Positions 11,845 to 18,220 of a stretch of 64,000 nucleotides of DNA are shown here, piece after piece. The stretch lies in assembly GCA_963735035.1 (NCBI GenBank), contig CAVTJJ010000003.1, positions 288,001 to 352,000 on the forward strand, given 5' to 3'. The notes beneath the pieces are model-generated. The model was not told where the DNA came from. It saw only the letters and a list, made by a program, of their open reading frames with translations, and did no database searches. The first letter of the stretch is position 1, and each line of letters opens with the position of its first letter. The translations under genes and the position numbers were made by a program. This DNA is from an uncultured candidate division Zixibacteria bacterium. GTDB lineage: Bacteria > Zixibacteria > MSB-5A5 > GN15 > FEB-12.

Positions 11845-13308
11845 TTACGCTATGTAATTCACGTCCAGATTGCGGACCGCCAGAGTCTCGTCCAGCCGCC
11901 TGACCGGCGTGTTGTGAGGGGCCGACGTCACAATATTAGGATCGGTTTCCGCCTCACGGGCGATTCGGATCATAATCTCGGCGAAAGCTTCGAGCGTCTC
12001 GATAGTCTCCGTCTCGGTCGGCTCGATCATCAAAGCCTCGTGGACGATCAACGGGAAATAGTTGGTCGGGGCGTGGACGCCGAAATCGAGTAGCCGTTTG
12101 GAAATGTCGGAAGTCTTGACGCCGAGCTTCTTCTGCCGATCACCCGACAGCACAAACTCGTGCATGCAGTGGCGATCGTACGGCAGGTCGAAATCCTTCT
12201 TGAGCAGCTCTTTCAGGTAGTTGGCATTGAGCACGGCGTTTTCAGATGCTTCGCGCAATCCTTTGCCACCCAGGTTACGGATGTAAGCGTAGGCCCGGAC
12301 CATATTGGCGAAATTGCCGTAGAACGTGTGCAGGCGACCGATTGACTTCGGACGGTCGTAATTGAAAAACAGCTTACCGCCGTCACCCTTCTCCAACACT
12401 GGGAAGGGAAGGAACTTTTCGAGTTCCTTAGTAACACCAACTGCGCCCGCGCCCGGCCCGCCGCCGCCGTGCGGGGTCGAGAAGGTCTTGTGCAGGTTGA
12501 AGTGCATGATGTCGAAACCGACATCGCCGGGACGGAAAATACCCATGTTGGCGTTCAGGTTGGCGCCGTCCATATAGAGCAGGCCGCCGGCCTTGTGCAC
12601 TACCCGGGCGATTTCCTCGATATTGCTTTCGAACAGCCCCAGCGTATTCGGATTGGTCATCATCATGCCGGCGACTTCGTCGTCGAGCGCCGCCGCGACC
12701 GCTTCGGGAGAAATAATACCCCGCTCGTTCGATTTGATCTCGACCGTCGTGAAACCGATCGAAGTCACCGACGCCGGGTTGGTACCGTGGGCCGAATCCG
12801 GGATAATGATCTTATGCCGCTTGTTGCCTTTGTCCAGATGGTAGGCGCGCATAATCAACAGACCGGTGAACTCACCGTGAGCGCCGGCTACCGGCTGGAG
12901 CGAAATTGCCGGGAAACCGGAAACTTCGCGCAGGAAACCGATCAATTCCCACATCAACTGCAGACTACCCGTCGACCGACTACACGGAGTGAGTGGGTGA
13001 TGCTCCTGAAAACCACGAAGCGACGCGGCCACGTCGTTCATCTTGGGGTTGTACTTCATCGTACACGATCCCAGCGGGTAAAAGCCCTTGTCGATGTGGT
13101 GGTTCTTGGTCGACAGATTGACAAAGTGACGGACCACTTCCGGCTCAGCCACTTCGGGCAGAGCGGCGTCTTGGGAACGCCTAAACCGCTCCGGTATGGT
13201 CTTCAAGATGTCAGCTTCGTTGTGTTTGGTCGCGGGAAGGGTGTACCCCTTGCGGCCCGACTGGGATTTCTCGTATATCAGAATCTTTTCTTCCACGGCT
13301 CTATCCAA
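11845..13308 (-). CDS. gcvPB: Glycine dehydrogenase (decarboxylating) subunit 2
   Basis: YPLGSCTMKYNPK, SAHGTNPAS, PLP-lysine motif NLHKTFSTPHGGGGPG, EPTETE. Confidence 0.97.
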   Translation of the reverse strand: MDRAVEEKILIYEKSQSGRKGYTLPATKHNEADILKTIPERFRRSQDAALPEVAEPEVVRHFVNLSTKNHHIDKGFYPLGSCTMKYNPKMNDVAASLRGFQEHHPLTPCSRSTGSLQLMWELIGFLREVSGFPAISLQPVAGAHGEFTGLLIMRAYHLDKGNKRHKIIIPDSAHGTNPASVTSIGFTTVEIKSNERGIISPEAVAAALDDEVAGMMMTNPNTLGLFESNIEEIARVVHKAGGLLYMDGANLNANMGIFRPGDVGFDIMHFNLHKTFSTPHGGGGPGAGAVGVTKELEKFLPFPVLEKGDGGKLFFNYDRPKSIGRLHTFYGNFANMVRAYAYIRNLGGKGLREASENAVLNANYLKELLKKDFDLPYDRHCMHEFVLSGDRQKKLGVKTSDISKRLLDFGVHAPTNYFPLIVHEALMIEPTETETIETLEAFAEIMIRIAREAETDPNIVTSAPHNTPVRRLDETLAVRNLDVNYIA

Positions 13309-13326: not shown

Positions 13327-14205
13327 TTACTTCTTGTCGCCGGCGGGAGTCGGGTTCTTCAATTTCTTTATCTGTCCTTCAGCGTAATCCTTGTCCTCGG
13401 AGTCAGGGTAACGCTGAATGTATGATTCGAATATCGATATGGCCTGGGCGGTGTCGCCCTTCTTGACGTTCACAATCGCCTGCATCAGCAAGGCATCGCG
13501 ACCGTGAAACGTCGTAAACTCTTGCTCGATCTTCTTGTAAGCGTCGATAGCTTCGTCATATTTCTTGTCGCGACGGAGAAAATCGGCAAAGGCTATCCGT
13601 GCTTCGCCCGAGAGCGAATCGTGCAGATCGCCGGTCTCGATCACTTTGGTGTACCAGTTCTGAGCATCTGTCGCCTGACCGCGATACTTGTACTTGTCCG
13701 CAATCTGAAGATCGAGAGACCGGTCGGTAGCGGCGCTCGCCTTAGCAAGCATGTCGTTCAGAGTGCCGATACCCTTGGAAAAATCTTCGAATGTCTTGAG
13801 ATATTCCTGCGTCGGCTCATACCCTACCAGGCGGTCAACTTCCACACCGCTCTTGTTTACCAGCATTGACGTCGGAAATGCCTTGGCATAGTAACGCGCA
13901 GCGACTGCCGAATCCTTTTCGGGATTTACTCTGGCCAGAATCATCTGATTGGAGAAGAACTTGATTGTAGTATCATTTATGAACACGACCGTGTCCAGCG
14001 TCTTGCACCACGTTCACCAATCGGTGTAGAATTCGATCACCACGAATTGGCTGTCTTTAGCCGCTTTCAAGGCATCGTCGATCTGAGAGTAGTACGGCAC
14101 GTAGCCGGGCTTGGTGACCAGTGAAGTCGACGGCGTTTCGCCGGCGAGGCAAACCGTCGCAACCACTGACGTCAGCAGCAGAGTCGCAAAAATCAGAAGA
14201 CGCAT
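13327..14205 (-). CDS. Exported thioredoxin-fold + TPR selenoprotein (UxxC; Sec at TGA 14014-14016)
   Basis: ORFs 14014..14271 and 13327..13986 are in frame: ...VIEFYTDW-TGA-TWCKTLDTVVF...; AGGAAGGA RBS and a signal peptide at ATG 14205; AFPT cis-Pro loop; C-terminal TPR-like helices; SECIS-like hairpin after TGA. Confidence 0.82.
13980..13997 (-). promoter_or_regulatory. Candidate bacterial SECIS hairpin
   Basis: UGGACAC-GGUC-GUGUUCA: 7-bp stem with a G-starting 4-nt loop, 23 nt after the UGA. Confidence 0.6.
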
Positions 14206-14236
14206 CTCGGTTCCTTCCTGTAACCTTCGTAATTTC

Positions 14237-14623
14237 CTACTGTTTGGGGGCGTCGATCGCCTCGAAATCATCGCCGAGCACGGCCGACAGGAGTAGTTCG
14301 ACTTCCTGCCGGAACTCGCGCGGCACCATCAAATAATGTTTGTCGCCCCGGGAGGGTTTGGCGCCGGAAATCCAACCGACCCCGTTGGGCAGCGGTTGAA
14401 AAGCCGAGGACATAACGATCGAGGGGATATTGTTCGATTCCAGGAGCCCGCGCACGAGTTGCGAAGTAAGGTCTTTCTCTATCTGGCAGACTCTAATCCA
14501 GCTATCGTCCGGCGAAACCGCCGCTGCACCGGCGGGCATCTGGTCTACCAGACCGACCTTGCACTCGGGGCATATCACCATCGAAGTATCATATTCAAAT
14601 GAGCATTCAGGACAATAAGGCAT
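14237..14623 (-). CDS. Zinc-ribbon + DUF2007 (putative signal-transducing) protein
   Basis: CPEC...CPEC knuckle; LVRGLLESNNIPS and LMVPREF match the DUF2007 pattern. Confidence 0.75.
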   Translation of the reverse strand: MPYCPECSFEYDTSMVICPECKVGLVDQMPAGAAAVSPDDSWIRVCQIEKDLTSQLVRGLLESNNIPSIVMSSAFQPLPNGVGWISGAKPSRGDKHYLMVPREFRQEVELLLSAVLGDDFEAIDAPKQ

Positions 14624-14989
14624 CTAAGACTCTTTCACGTTGCGTTGCCATTTGTCGCCCAGCACCATATCAAGAACGCCGGTGGCCTCTTCCACGCACT
14701 CTTCGGGCGTAGAGACTTCAAACAACTGCGATCCGGCTTTGTAAAACCCAGTCAGCGTCAGACCGGCCTGTCCGAAAAACCCGGACTTGGAGATCACGAC
14801 CGCCGGGATTTCGTACGATTTCAGAACTTCCCGGGCGTAGTCGGCCGAGATGTTGTCGGCTATGAAACCGAGCAGCACCCAGGGACTTTCCGATTGCTCC
14901 GCCTCGGACTTGCCGAGTTCGCGCGAGCAGACCGGACACTCGGTCACGCCGTCCTCCCATTCGGTTTTACACACCGGACAAAACGCCAC
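14624..14989 (-). CDS. Zinc-ribbon + DUF2007-like protein
   Basis: CPVC...CPVC; AREVLKSYEIPAV; GTG start overlaps the gcvPA 3' end. Confidence 0.72.
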   Translation of the reverse strand: MAFCPVCKTEWEDGVTECPVCSRELGKSEAEQSESPWVLLGFIADNISADYAREVLKSYEIPAVVISKSGFFGQAGLTLTGFYKAGSQLFEVSTPEECVEEATGVLDMVLGDKWQRNVKES

Positions 14990-16322
14990 GGGCTGACAAC
15001 TCCTTCAATCCGCCGACCAGGGCGGCGATATCGGCGTCGGTACGTTTCTCGGTGAGCGCCACGATCAGGCAGTTCTTCATCGAGGGATACCATCGACCGG
15101 CATCTACTCCCGGCAGGACGCCTCTTTCCATCATGTGTATGACCACATCGCTCGCCGGCACCGGGGTTTTCACCGCGAACTCGCGAACAAACGGGCCACG
15201 GAAATACATTTCGAATCCGCTGAGCGCGGCAATCTGCGTCGCAGCGTTCTGGGCTTTCTCAGCCGAAATCAGCGCCACCTGCTTGAGGCCGGTTTTGCCC
15301 ATCAGGCTGAAATAGATCGACGCCATCGTGGCGCACAGCGCTTCATTGGAGCATATATTAGACGTCGCCTTCTGACGGCGGATGTGCTGCTCCCGGGTCT
15401 GGAGGGTGAGCACGAATCCGTTCTTGCCATCGACATCTTTGGTGCGTGCCGCGATTCGACCCGGCATGCTTCGAACCAAATCTTTCTTTACCGAGAAGAA
15501 ACCAAGCAGCGGACCGCCGAACGAGAGCGGAATGCCCAAAGGCTGGCCTTCGCCCAAGGCTATATCGGCACCGATTTCGCCTGGAGTCTTAAGAAGGGAC
15601 TGGACGATCGGATCGACCACCATCACGAGCTTGCCGCCCGCCTGATGAATGACCTCACCCATCCGTTCCACTTCTTCGAGTTGTCCGAAGAAGTTTGGCT
15701 GAGCCACGATGACACAGGCGGTCCGATTGTCAACCGCGGCCGTAAGCTTCTTGAGATCGGTGACGCCATCAGTCAATGGCACCGTCACGATTTCGACTTC
15801 GCGCGGTGTGACGTAGGTTGCGATGACTTCTCGAATAAGCGGGCTGACCGTCTCGCAGACCACGATCTTGTTTCGGTCGGTGACTGAGACACAGATAAGC
15901 GCCGCCTCGCCGGCCGCCGTGGCGCCGTCGTACATTGACGCGTTGGCGACATCGAGACCGGTCAGACGACAGATGTGGGTCTGGTATTCGTAAATGGCCT
16001 GCAGTGTTCCTTGAGCGACTTCAGCCTGATAAGGTGTGTATGCCGTGACAAATTCCGGCCGGGAAGCCAGTGCGGTCAGCGCCGACGGCACAAAGTGATC
16101 GTAGACACCACCGCCCGCAAAACAAACCGAACCCTGACGGTTCATCAGCGAGAGGCGCTCGATCTCGGCCAGCACTTCCATTTCGGAAAGCGCAGGAATG
16201 TTGAGCGGCCGGTTCAGTCGCAGCTTATGGGGGATATCCTGCAGAATATCTTCAATCGTGCCGACCCCGATCTTCTGAAGCATCTTCTTTCGGTCGGCAT
16301 CGGTGTTGGACAAGTAAGACAT
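14967..16322 (-). CDS. gcvPA: Glycine dehydrogenase (decarboxylating) subunit 1
   Basis: TAYTPYQAEVAQG, NASMYDGA, LQTREQHIRRQKATSNIC. Confidence 0.97.
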   Translation of the reverse strand: MSYLSNTDADRKKMLQKIGVGTIEDILQDIPHKLRLNRPLNIPALSEMEVLAEIERLSLMNRQGSVCFAGGGVYDHFVPSALTALASRPEFVTAYTPYQAEVAQGTLQAIYEYQTHICRLTGLDVANASMYDGATAAGEAALICVSVTDRNKIVVCETVSPLIREVIATYVTPREVEIVTVPLTDGVTDLKKLTAAVDNRTACVIVAQPNFFGQLEEVERMGEVIHQAGGKLVMVVDPIVQSLLKTPGEIGADIALGEGQPLGIPLSFGGPLLGFFSVKKDLVRSMPGRIAARTKDVDGKNGFVLTLQTREQHIRRQKATSNICSNEALCATMASIYFSLMGKTGLKQVALISAEKAQNAATQIAALSGFEMYFRGPFVREFAVKTPVPASDVVIHMMERGVLPGVDAGRWYPSMKNCLIVALTEKRTDADIAALVGGLKELSARGVLSGV

Positions 16323-16361: not shown

Positions 16362-16742
16362 TTAGTGTGACAACAGGTGGGTGTAACCCTCGGCATCGAG
16401 CAGTTGATCTACCTCGGAATGGTCTTCCATCTCGACCTTGATGATCCATCCTTCGCCGTAACAATCCCGATTGACCATCATCGGATCGTCACCCAGCGCG
16501 GTGTTTACTTCGACTACCTTGCCGGTAACGGGCGAATAGACTTCGGAGACCGCTTTGACGGCTTCGATGGTGCCGAAAGCTTCGCCGAGTCTGACTTCGG
16601 TGCCGACTTTGGGCAGCTCGACAAACACCACATCACCCAATTCACCCTGAGCATAGTCGGTAACGCCGACGGTAGCCAAAGGACCTTCAACTCCAACCCA
16701 CTCGTGTTCCGTAGTGTACCTAAGATCTGCTGGAACGTTCAC
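16362..16742 (-). CDS. gcvH: Glycine cleavage system H protein
   Basis: YTTEHEW, LGDVVFVELP, lipoyl-lysine motif IEAVKAVSE. Confidence 0.96.
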   Translation of the reverse strand: MNVPADLRYTTEHEWVGVEGPLATVGVTDYAQGELGDVVFVELPKVGTEVRLGEAFGTIEAVKAVSEVYSPVTGKVVEVNTALGDDPMMVNRDCYGEGWIIKVEMEDHSEVDQLLDAEGYTHLLSH

Positions 16743-16756
16743 TCAAAACCTCCGGA

Positions 16757-18220
16757 TTAGTGCGAATCTGCATCAGCGACTGTCACTGTGGCCGGTTCGG
16801 TGGTGGTCGGAGTCTCCGACGTATCACCTTCACCCGGTCGCTTAAGCGTTATTGAATTTTTTTTTTGATCGTCCCGCCCCTGGCGGAATTTAGTCTCTAT
16901 GAACGAAGTATCGTAGTTGCCTGCAATGAAATCGGGATGCGCGAATATCTCCTGGTGGAACTGGATCGTGGTCGGCACACCCTGAATGACCAATTGATCG
17001 AGCGAAACACGCATCTTGGCTATAGCCTGCTCGCGGGTGCGGGCCCGAACGATCAGCTTGGCGATCATCGAATCATAATACGGCGGAATCACATAGTCGG
17101 CATAGACGGCCTTGTCAATACGAACTCCCGGGCCGCCCGGAAGGTGGATAGCCTCGATCTTGCCCGGCGTCGGACGAAAATCTTTCTCGACATCCTCGGC
17201 GTTGATCCGGCACTCCATCGCGACCCACTTGGGCTTGATGTCTTCCTGGCGATAAGTCAGTTTCTCGCCCAGGGCGACTTTAATCTGATCCTGAACCAGG
17301 TCCACTTCGAACGCTTCCTCGGTAATCGGATGTTCCACCTGGATACGGGTATTCATTTCCATAAAATAGAAATTGCGCTGCTCATCGACCAGGAACTCGA
17401 TCGTCCCGGCGCCCCGATACTCGACATTACGAGCGCCCATCACCGCCGCGGCTCCCATCCGGGCCCGCAGATCGTCGGTCATAATAGGCGACGGCGTCTC
17501 TTCAATCAGTTTCTGATGACGGCGCTGGATAGAACAATCGCGCTCGCCAAAATGGAAGTAGTTCCCGTGGGTGTCGCCAAGAAGCTGAAACTCGACATGG
17601 TGCGGGTTGACTATAACTTTTTCGAGATAGAGATCAGGGTTTGAGAAGGCGTTGGCGGCTTCGGTCGAAGCAATATGAAAGCCGCGCTCCAACTCGGCCG
17701 CGTCGCGACAAATTCTCATCCCCTTGCCGCCGCCACCAGCGACCGCCTTGAGGATGACCGGGTATCCGACCTGTTCGGCTATCTCGCGTGCATCCAAATA
17801 AGACGCGACGATACCTTCCGAACCGGGAATCACCGGCACCCCGGCAGCCTTCATGAGCGCCTTGGCCGAGGCCTTGTCGCCCATCTGACGAATTTGTTTG
17901 GGAGTCGGACCGATGAAGTTGATGCCACACGATTCGCAGACTTCTGCGAAATCGGCGTTCTCAGCCAGGAAACCATAACCGGGATGAATCGCACCCGCAT
18001 TGGTGACTTCGGCCGCAGCGATGATCCGCTTGAAATCCAGGTATGACTGAGCAGCCGGCGGCGGACCGATACAGACGTCTTCATCGGCAAACCGCACATG
18101 CAGAGCATTACGGTCGGCTTCGGAATAGACCGCAACCGTCTTGAGGCCCAGCTCCTGGCAGGCACGAATTACGCGAAGGGCGATTTCGCCCCGATTAGCA
18201 ATCAGAACCTTATCAAACAA
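16757..18220 (-). CDS. accC: Acetyl-CoA carboxylase biotin carboxylase subunit
   Basis: [55 protein letters not shown]. Confidence 0.95.

Follow-up and report, generated by a model that had tools for sequence, protein, structure and literature searches.

The window under study is a stretch of 64,000 nucleotides from an uncultured candidate division Zixibacteria bacterium (GenBank assembly GCA_963735035.1, contig CAVTJJ010000003.1, positions 288,001 to 352,000 of the forward strand). On its minus strand, positions 13327-14205 very probably form a single gene coding for an exported protein of 292 residues that combines a thioredoxin (Trx) domain with tetratricopeptide repeats (TPR) and in which the UGA at codon 64 is read as selenocysteine (Sec). 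This reading is carried by the reading frame, by the alternation of TGA and cysteine codons in relatives, by a conserved hairpin with the features of a Sec insertion sequence (SECIS) and by the Sec decoding machinery of the genome. The Trx-TPR protein is probably a thiol-disulfide oxidoreductase of the cell envelope, a role proposed from its domain content.

The frame begins at ATG 14205-14203 and codes for MRLLIFATLLLTSVVATVCLAGETPS...EFYTDW up to TGA 14016-14014. It continues with TWCKTLDTVVF... and encounters no further stop until TAA 13329-13327, for a total of 292 codons. The UGA is thus codon 64 (minus strand, 14014-14016) and stands at position 1 of the thioredoxin WCxWC motif. Codon 67 (TGC, 14005-14007, minus strand) provides the putative resolving cysteine of the UxxC motif (U-T-W-C) and is found in all 23 full-length sequences aligned. 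A purine-rich segment resembling a Shine-Dalgarno sequence, GGAAGGAA (14211-14218, minus strand), is localized 5 nt upstream of the ATG and may act as ribosome binding site. A preliminary description of this DNA had placed the TGA exactly at the first Cys of a thioredoxin WCxxC motif (FYTDW-U-TWCK), in a frame running without interruption into a 219-residue remainder, and had noted a signal peptide and a 7-bp hairpin whose loop starts with a G at 23 nt downstream; all of these were recovered here, the stem beginning 16 nt and the loop 23 nt after the UGA, and the hydrophobic leader recurring in 22/23 full-length family members.

The current annotation divides the gene in two. In the mechanical listing of open reading frames (ORFs), a piece of 85 amino acids ends at the TGA and a second one of 219 amino acids (13327-13986) starts at a GTG (13984-13986, minus strand) situated inside the 3' arm of the hairpin. 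The 219-residue ORF is in the same frame, 3' of the TGA, and is a separate public protein entry (P0003). Gene callers end at the UGA and restart at this GTG within the SECIS stem, which generates a spurious 219-residue 'TPR protein'. Contigs assembled from four other metagenome runs cover 13975-14046 and feature no difference at 14014-14016 among the rows listed; these contigs belong to relatives, carry no depth or strand information and cover the gene only partly. The best-matching DNA sequencing run shares 0.14 of the sampled words, and no RNA run was among the matches listed.

Relatives of the protein show which residue belongs at the UGA column. At least 155 homologs were found in protein collections, 120 of which are listed and were counted by hand. 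Sixty-eight of the 120 have 204-228 amino acids and begin just after the TGA column, and the other 52 have 281-319. Those that a source names are proteins from Zixibacteria metagenome-assembled genomes, the short ones called 'tetratricopeptide repeat protein' and the long ones 'thioredoxin domain-containing protein'. When the protein of the window was aligned with 22 of the 52 long homologs and seven short ones, Cys occupied the column of residue 64 in 22/22 full-length homologs, as well as column 67, and the seven short sequences were found to begin 7-10 residues past the UGA column.

The same column was followed at the DNA level with a six-frame search of 151 genomes across the phylum, which detected a homolog in 149 of them. 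By hand count, 80 of the 150 matches listed (there are 11 more beyond these) have one in-frame TGA, accompanied in three cases by a second stop, and the other 70 are free of in-frame TGA. The DNA was read for 59 of the 80 TGA matches, comprising 19 loci of the window's own family (L020-L049) and 40 of other families (L050-L089). TGA codes residue 1 of UxxC in 59/59 of these loci, and the remaining 11 loci of L020-L049 have TGT or TGC at the column of residue 64.

The hairpin assigned as SECIS (13980-13997, minus strand) starts 16 nt after the UGA and has a 7-bp stem, formed by a 5' arm at 13997-13991 and a 3' arm at 13986-13980, with the apical loop GGUC at 13990-13987. The assignment rests on its pairing and covariation in Sec forms. 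All Sec forms of the window's family (19/19) have ACG GTC without any variation, even at silent sites; in the Cys forms of this family ACG is found in 3/11 and GTC in 4/11. The GAC and GTG codons vary only in Sec forms that have a change in the partner too or remain paired. Pairing of the stem is complete in 126/126 cells (18 distinct sequences from the 19 family-level Sec forms). Pair 21/36 covaries, with G-C in 13 distinct sequences and C-G in 5, where it arises through a Phe-to-Leu codon change, and so does pair 24/33 (C-G in 16, U-A in 1 and U-G in 1). The observed pairing or covariation score was reached by 0/500 shuffles, and registers slid along the sequence pair at 29-49%. The same structure imposed on the Cys forms is 75.3% paired, a level reached by 297/500 shuffles.

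A scan that allowed hairpins to start 8-24 nt past the UGA, without bulges, found a stem of at least 6 bp in 51/59 Sec forms (19/19 of the family and 32/40 of the distant ones); the frequency was 2/11 in Cys forms and 24% in shuffles. Distant clades display other stems and loops at the equivalent place, for instance UCGAUAC/CGUGAC/GUAUCGA and AGGUUGGA/GGA/UUCAACCU. According to the available part of a description of bacterial SECIS elements, these come with a Cys/TGA pair that is conserved and with a stem-loop directly after the UGA whose apical loop is small and includes a G (PMC1088965). The hairpin of the Trx-TPR gene agrees with the portion consulted in its position, in its small G-containing apical loop and in its conservation among Sec forms. 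No SECIS family was found when 13850-14150 was scanned with Rfam at E up to 10, the single hit being a chance match to CRISPR-DR17 (20.5 bits, gathering score 42). In three unrelated metagenome runs, several short pieces of contigs match the window over 13980-14036 (~50 nt) only and diverge beyond. This fits a view of the segment, which spans active site, UGA and SECIS, as an island of nucleotide-level conservation in an otherwise diverged gene.

The genome of the window (six contigs, 96.9% complete) encodes the components for Sec decoding. It has a tRNA-Sec (67.6 bits, gathering score 47), which ARAGORN identifies as SeC with anticodon TCA, together with selA (511.5 bits, cut-off 267.9), selB (327.8 bits, cut-off 242.25) and selD (394.1 bits, cut-off 125). 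The genes for tRNA-Sec, selA and selB are found within ~14 kb of one contig (G000:C6:279334-293537; L001, L009 and L011), where selA adjoins selB. The selD gene (G000:C3:544642-545568, L018) lies on the same contig as the window, outside of it, and has its own in-frame TGA (VACAG-U-ASK) and, 13 nt downstream of this codon, a hairpin of 7 bp whose loop is GUU. This gene provides an internal positive control for the use of Sec in this organism. An alternative genetic code was considered and rejected, as TGA acts as a normal stop in the window, where it ends 21/48 open frames of at least 250 codons, some of these being shadow frames. Across the phylum, selA is present in 147/151 genomes sampled. 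The preliminary description had proposed to look for Cys or TGA in the homologs at this exact column and for the Sec genes in the genome, and both were found, the former in 22/22 full-length database homologs and 59/59 loci, the latter with all four components above curated cut-offs. Its overall proposal of a 292-residue periplasmic selenoprotein with Sec64 stands as to frame, column, hairpin and machinery; incorporation of selenium and the periplasmic location are still deduced.

Exchange between Sec and Cys appears to have been frequent in the evolution of the family. A maximum-likelihood tree of 30 family-level proteins, calculated with the Sec site masked as X, requires nine Sec/Cys changes, at least four of which are forced by well-supported branches. 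The Sec and Cys labels are no more clustered on the tree than shuffled ones (309/500), and three supported sister pairs differ in their Sec/Cys state. The Cys form L024 retains an intact hairpin and is sister of the Sec form L029, from the same genus, with branch lengths of 0.03; L024 looks like a recent replacement, presumably of Sec by Cys. Some genomes harbor two copies. They are in tandem in G051, one with Cys and one with TGA (C4:101650-103397), and in G146 (L032), at a contig edge, and in G037 (C1; L091 and L092) the Cys copy is inside the gcv operon and the TGA copy elsewhere. A restriction of Cys forms to genomes that have lost Sec decoding was considered and rejected: selA is present in 147/151 genomes, those with Cys forms included, showing that Cys forms are not due to loss of the trait.

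The complete coding sequence (13327-14205, minus strand; 292 codons plus TAA, with TGA64 as Sec) was modelled as a read-through protein with AlphaFold2, based on 30 aligned family members (mean predicted local distance difference test, pLDDT, of 92.5; predicted template modelling score of 0.83). The model has a single continuous Trx fold, with strands at residues 54-59, 88-93, 112-116 and 122-127 and pLDDT above 90 across the UGA site. Residue 64 is positioned just before helix 65-74, the canonical location of CxxC, and C67 enters the helix. P111-T112 is invariant in the 30 sequences, P111 belonging to the loop that holds the cis-proline in Trx folds. The Trx domain extends over about residues 36-143 (13777-14100, minus strand), as delimited by Pfam, by the model and by sequence matches to proteins of the PDB. 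Pfam recognizes it across the TGA at residues 48-137, with PF00085 at 43.1 bits (cut-off 23.5) and PF13098 at 31.7 bits (cut-off 27). Its matches to solved structures include 3idv (3e-20), 2kuc (1.8e-19) and DsbD-gamma 4ip6 (7.4e-17).

The TPR domain, made exclusively of helices, covers about residues 149-283 (13357-13761, minus strand) in the model. Pfam locates the repeats at residues 167-276 (TPR_6, 37.5 bits, cut-off 26.3; TPR_14, 28.7 bits, cut-off 23.5), with weaker matches to further TPR-type models that are under their cut-offs. The closest solved structures are BamD (3qky) and CpoB (6g5s). At the other end of the protein, the amino terminus MRLLIFATLLLTSVVATVCLAG has a hydrophobic segment like that of signal peptides (best 12-residue hydrophobicity of 2.54), modelled as helix 2-20. 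The predicted signal peptide comprises about residues 1-21 (14143-14205, minus strand), with cleavage probably near CLA/G. Because such a leader is present in 22/23 full-length members and a lipobox in 12/23, export is predicted for the family; many members would be lipoproteins, and that of this organism probably a soluble protein after cleavage by signal peptidase I. No NCBIfam model claims the Trx-TPR protein, the best selenoprotein model reaching 46.8 bits for a cut-off of 805.

The bacterial mechanism for Sec insertion, with SelB, Sec-tRNA-Sec and the SECIS, was worked out for E. coli fdhF. By analogy, the hairpin would tether SelB-GTP-Sec-tRNA(Sec) to the translating ribosome, where selenocysteine would be inserted at UGA64 in place of termination. 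The leader would then route the protein via the Sec (general secretion) translocon, to be probably cut by signal peptidase I here and to act as a lipoprotein leader in the 12/23 relatives with a lipobox. Outside the cytoplasm, U64-T-W-C67 might cycle between the selenolate/thiol and the selenenylsulfide states, as expected of a thiol-disulfide oxidoreductase in which Sec64 would offer a more reactive nucleophile. The TPR domain may serve to hold a partner protein or a client. A DsbD-type membrane domain is also encoded in the genome (DsbD_TM, 200.7 bits), and this membrane electron carrier could keep the Trx-TPR protein reduced.

The gene is inserted in a group of genes for the glycine cleavage system. 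Their order, all on the minus strand and with short gaps, is gcvH (16362-16742; GCV_H, 156 bits), gcvPA (glycine dehydrogenase subunit 1, 14967-16322; GDC-P, 406 bits), two small paralogous genes with CxxC...CxxC motifs, the Trx-TPR gene, and gcvPB (glycine dehydrogenase subunit 2, 11845-13308; GcvP2_C and GDC-P), which is 18 nt downstream of the Trx-TPR gene. The small genes (14624-14989 and 14237-14623) code for proteins of 121 and 128 amino acids, respectively, that are 23% identical and have CPxC...CPxC amino termini; they gave no Pfam family at E < 0.001, only weak zinc-ribbon matches. This gene order is conserved. Throughout the window's family the two CPxC genes remain in place, preceded by gcvPA and followed by the Trx-TPR gene, and gcvPA and gcvPB flank the latter in 28/30 family loci (L020-L049), the other two being cut by contig ends. 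In other families (L090-L105) both flank 12/16 loci, gcvPA alone is found at two, and two are second copies located elsewhere (L091 and L102). A biotin carboxylase gene (CPSase_L_D2, Biotin_carb_N and Biotin_carb_C; 16757-18220, minus strand) is directly upstream of gcvH.

Several observations weigh against a Sec-containing exported protein. Selenium insertion and expression of the gene are predicted, and so are export, redox direction and the roles given to DsbD and to the TPR domain. The sole read-level check of the TGA is the one with contigs of four other metagenomes, whose result is drawn from the rows listed. The hairpin of the window taken by itself is thermodynamically ordinary, its 71-nt fold having z = 0.06 relative to shuffles, and 50% of shuffles also contain a bulge-free hairpin of 5 bp or more; not energy but conservation among relatives, with covariation, makes the hairpin significant. 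In the scanned zone, 6/40 distant Sec forms lack any bulge-free hairpin of 4 bp or more, and 8/40 lack one of 6 bp or more. Two genomes that carry the TGA form, G046 (marker-based completeness of 100%) and G109 (93%), gave no selA, selB or tRNA-Sec above cut-off, the selA search having a threshold of E 1e-30. Since the three genes are within 14 kb in the genome of the window, the loss of one unbinned contig could plausibly account for their absence in G046 and G109; in G099, a genome in a single contig that shares its genus with G109, selA and the TGA form are both present. Furthermore, the gene of an exported protein is kept between two genes of a cytoplasmic enzyme, for which the proposed model offers no explanation.

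These two genomes would be accommodated if UGA64 were read through without Sec, by near-cognate insertion of Trp or Cys or by a local recoding independent of SelB, and the identity of the inserted residue is indeed deduced from sequence. Such a mechanism is very unlikely, given the Sec machinery of this genome and the presence of selA in 147/151 genomes of the phylum sample, the function of TGA as normal stop elsewhere, and the redox Cys position of the codon, which makes a classic Sec/Cys pair; the hairpin has, in addition, the position and small G-containing apical loop reported for bacterial SECIS elements in the part of PMC1088965 that was available. It is slightly less probable still that the TGA is a true stop, separating a 63-residue leader fragment from a 219-residue TPR protein or marking a pseudogene. 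Gene callers do annotate two pieces, the 219-residue product is accompanied by 68 similar short ones in public collections, several of them named 'tetratricopeptide repeat protein', and read-through is itself a deduction. The two pieces are, however, the halves of one Trx fold that is modelled with confidence as a single domain across the break, and the TGA keeps to the same catalytic column in every TGA locus read, in many families, alternating only with Cys. Decay of a pseudogene would not preserve both halves in frame nor freeze silent sites in a paired hairpin. There is a minimal chance that the true codon is TGC or TGT and became TGA through faulty sequencing or assembly. The window is known from an assembly, and Cys forms exist in close relatives, such as L024 and L029 from one genus, but TGA was found in 80 of the 150 matches listed, in independently assembled genomes, the contigs from four other runs have no difference at the site among the rows listed, and the SECIS is intact and matches that of Sec forms.

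Decoding of UGA64 as Sec leaves room for different functions, and here the alternatives deserve more credit. It is conceivable, though unlikely, that the selenoprotein is a dedicated factor tied to glycine cleavage, or a maturation factor similar to CcmG/CcmI that serves one class of exported proteins. The position between gcvPA and gcvPB in 28/30 family loci and in 12/16 loci of other families points to the former, and the Trx-plus-TPR layout, with YbbN/CnoX (3qou) as top full-length fold match, is reminiscent of client-specific factors. Against a dedicated factor speak the second gene copies away from the gcv genes (L091 and L102), the Trx domain matching classical Trx, protein disulphide isomerase (PDI) and DsbD-gamma, with the TlpA-family ResA model at just 16 bits for a cut-off of 170, and the glycine cleavage proteins themselves, which lack signal peptides and act in the cytoplasm. 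A further proposal, somewhat more doubtful, is that the protein represents an unlisted family of exported Sec-containing 'periplasmic chaperedoxins', near-universal in Zixibacteria and kept between gcvPA and gcvPB, in most of the loci examined, through a functional coupling to glycine cleavage or its regulation. If true, this coupling would link envelope redox chemistry to one-carbon metabolism, without known precedent.

For the envelope Trx-TPR selenoprotein proposed above, the most immediate consequence concerns annotation. Truncated entries (204-228 amino acids) stand for the protein of the window and for 68 of the 120 homologs listed, and they hide the catalytic domain and Sec, a situation that a dedicated model would mend across the phylum. 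Such a model would also extend the selenoproteome by an exported architecture of Trx plus TPR. The family offers a natural experiment, with repeated Sec/Cys switching, seen also between two members of one genus and between tandem copies, and it illustrates how the SECIS constrains coding sequence. The understanding of Sec decoding is left unchanged. Among bacterial selenoproteins, those with a Trx fold and UxxC are the most frequent type. A search of the literature found no Trx-TPR selenoprotein and no selenoprotein of Zixibacteria. An inventory from 2026 reports 119 prokaryotic selenoprotein families, and the terms TPR, tetratricopeptide and Zixibacteria have 0 occurrences in the part of its text that could be accessed (PMC13188914).

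The protein can be compared, by their descriptions, with two families of this inventory. Sec-containing thioredoxin is a small single-domain protein. As far as the accessible part of the inventory describes it, this experimentally verified family (Sec-Trx, Table 1 of PMC13188914) shares with the Trx-TPR protein the PF00085 fold with Sec first in UxxC; decoding by UGA and a downstream hairpin is common to both. Unlike the listed family, the Trx-TPR protein has a leader and a carboxyl terminus TPR domain of ~135 residues. It scores 43.8 bits with the thioredoxin equivalog TIGR01068, under the cut-off of 96.8. The second family, a predicted selenoprotein named 'Thiol:disulfide interchange protein', has in common PF13098, UxxC and a presumably extracytoplasmic location; in contrast to the Trx-TPR protein, no TPR domain is mentioned for it in the portion of the inventory available (PMC13188914).

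Among the best sequence matches of the Trx part are DsbD-gamma, a-domains of PDI and the Bacteroides disulphide isomerase-like protein 2kuc. The structures 3idv, 2kuc and 4ip6 are Trx-fold domains that are extracytoplasmic or from the endoplasmic reticulum. Membership in DsbD was nevertheless rejected, for the match to NF001419 (37.2 versus 330 bits) is confined to profile positions 460-571, the membrane domain is absent and there is a TPR tail. Likewise rejected was the TsoB rhodanese/DsbD fusion-like selenoprotein (NF045694), matched with 46.8 versus 805 bits over the last 140 profile positions only.

CnoX/YbbN of E. coli (3qou) has the same layout, with an amino terminus Trx and a carboxyl terminus TPR domain, and one public source calls a homolog 'thioredoxin-like negative regulator of GroEL'. 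In Foldseek searches of the full-length model, 3qou (E 1.3e-08) and 3qdn were the top matches, with 13-14% identity, a template modelling score of 0.27-0.33 and a root-mean-square deviation above 21 A over the whole length. These last two values indicate that the domains are arranged differently, and the likeness appears to be one of layout, not of family. CnoX is cytoplasmic, unlike the Trx-TPR protein with its leader, and the E. coli protein has SQHC in place of CxxC, as stated in the available part of PMC10998233. In the literature on CnoX, YbbN or chaperedoxin and selenocysteine, as far as it was accessible, no Sec form of CnoX was found.

The hairpin compares well with the SECIS of E. coli fdhF, which is likewise found shortly after the UGA and has a small apical loop with a G, its loop being also GGUC. 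The stem of the Trx-TPR gene is shorter (7 bp) and is wholly contained in the codons for L-D-T-V-V-F; other clades of the family differ in stem and loop sequences and keep the structure in the same place. The Trx-TPR protein is real, well supported and mis-annotated, and it is mechanistically ordinary: it joins the known Trx-fold UxxC selenoproteins.

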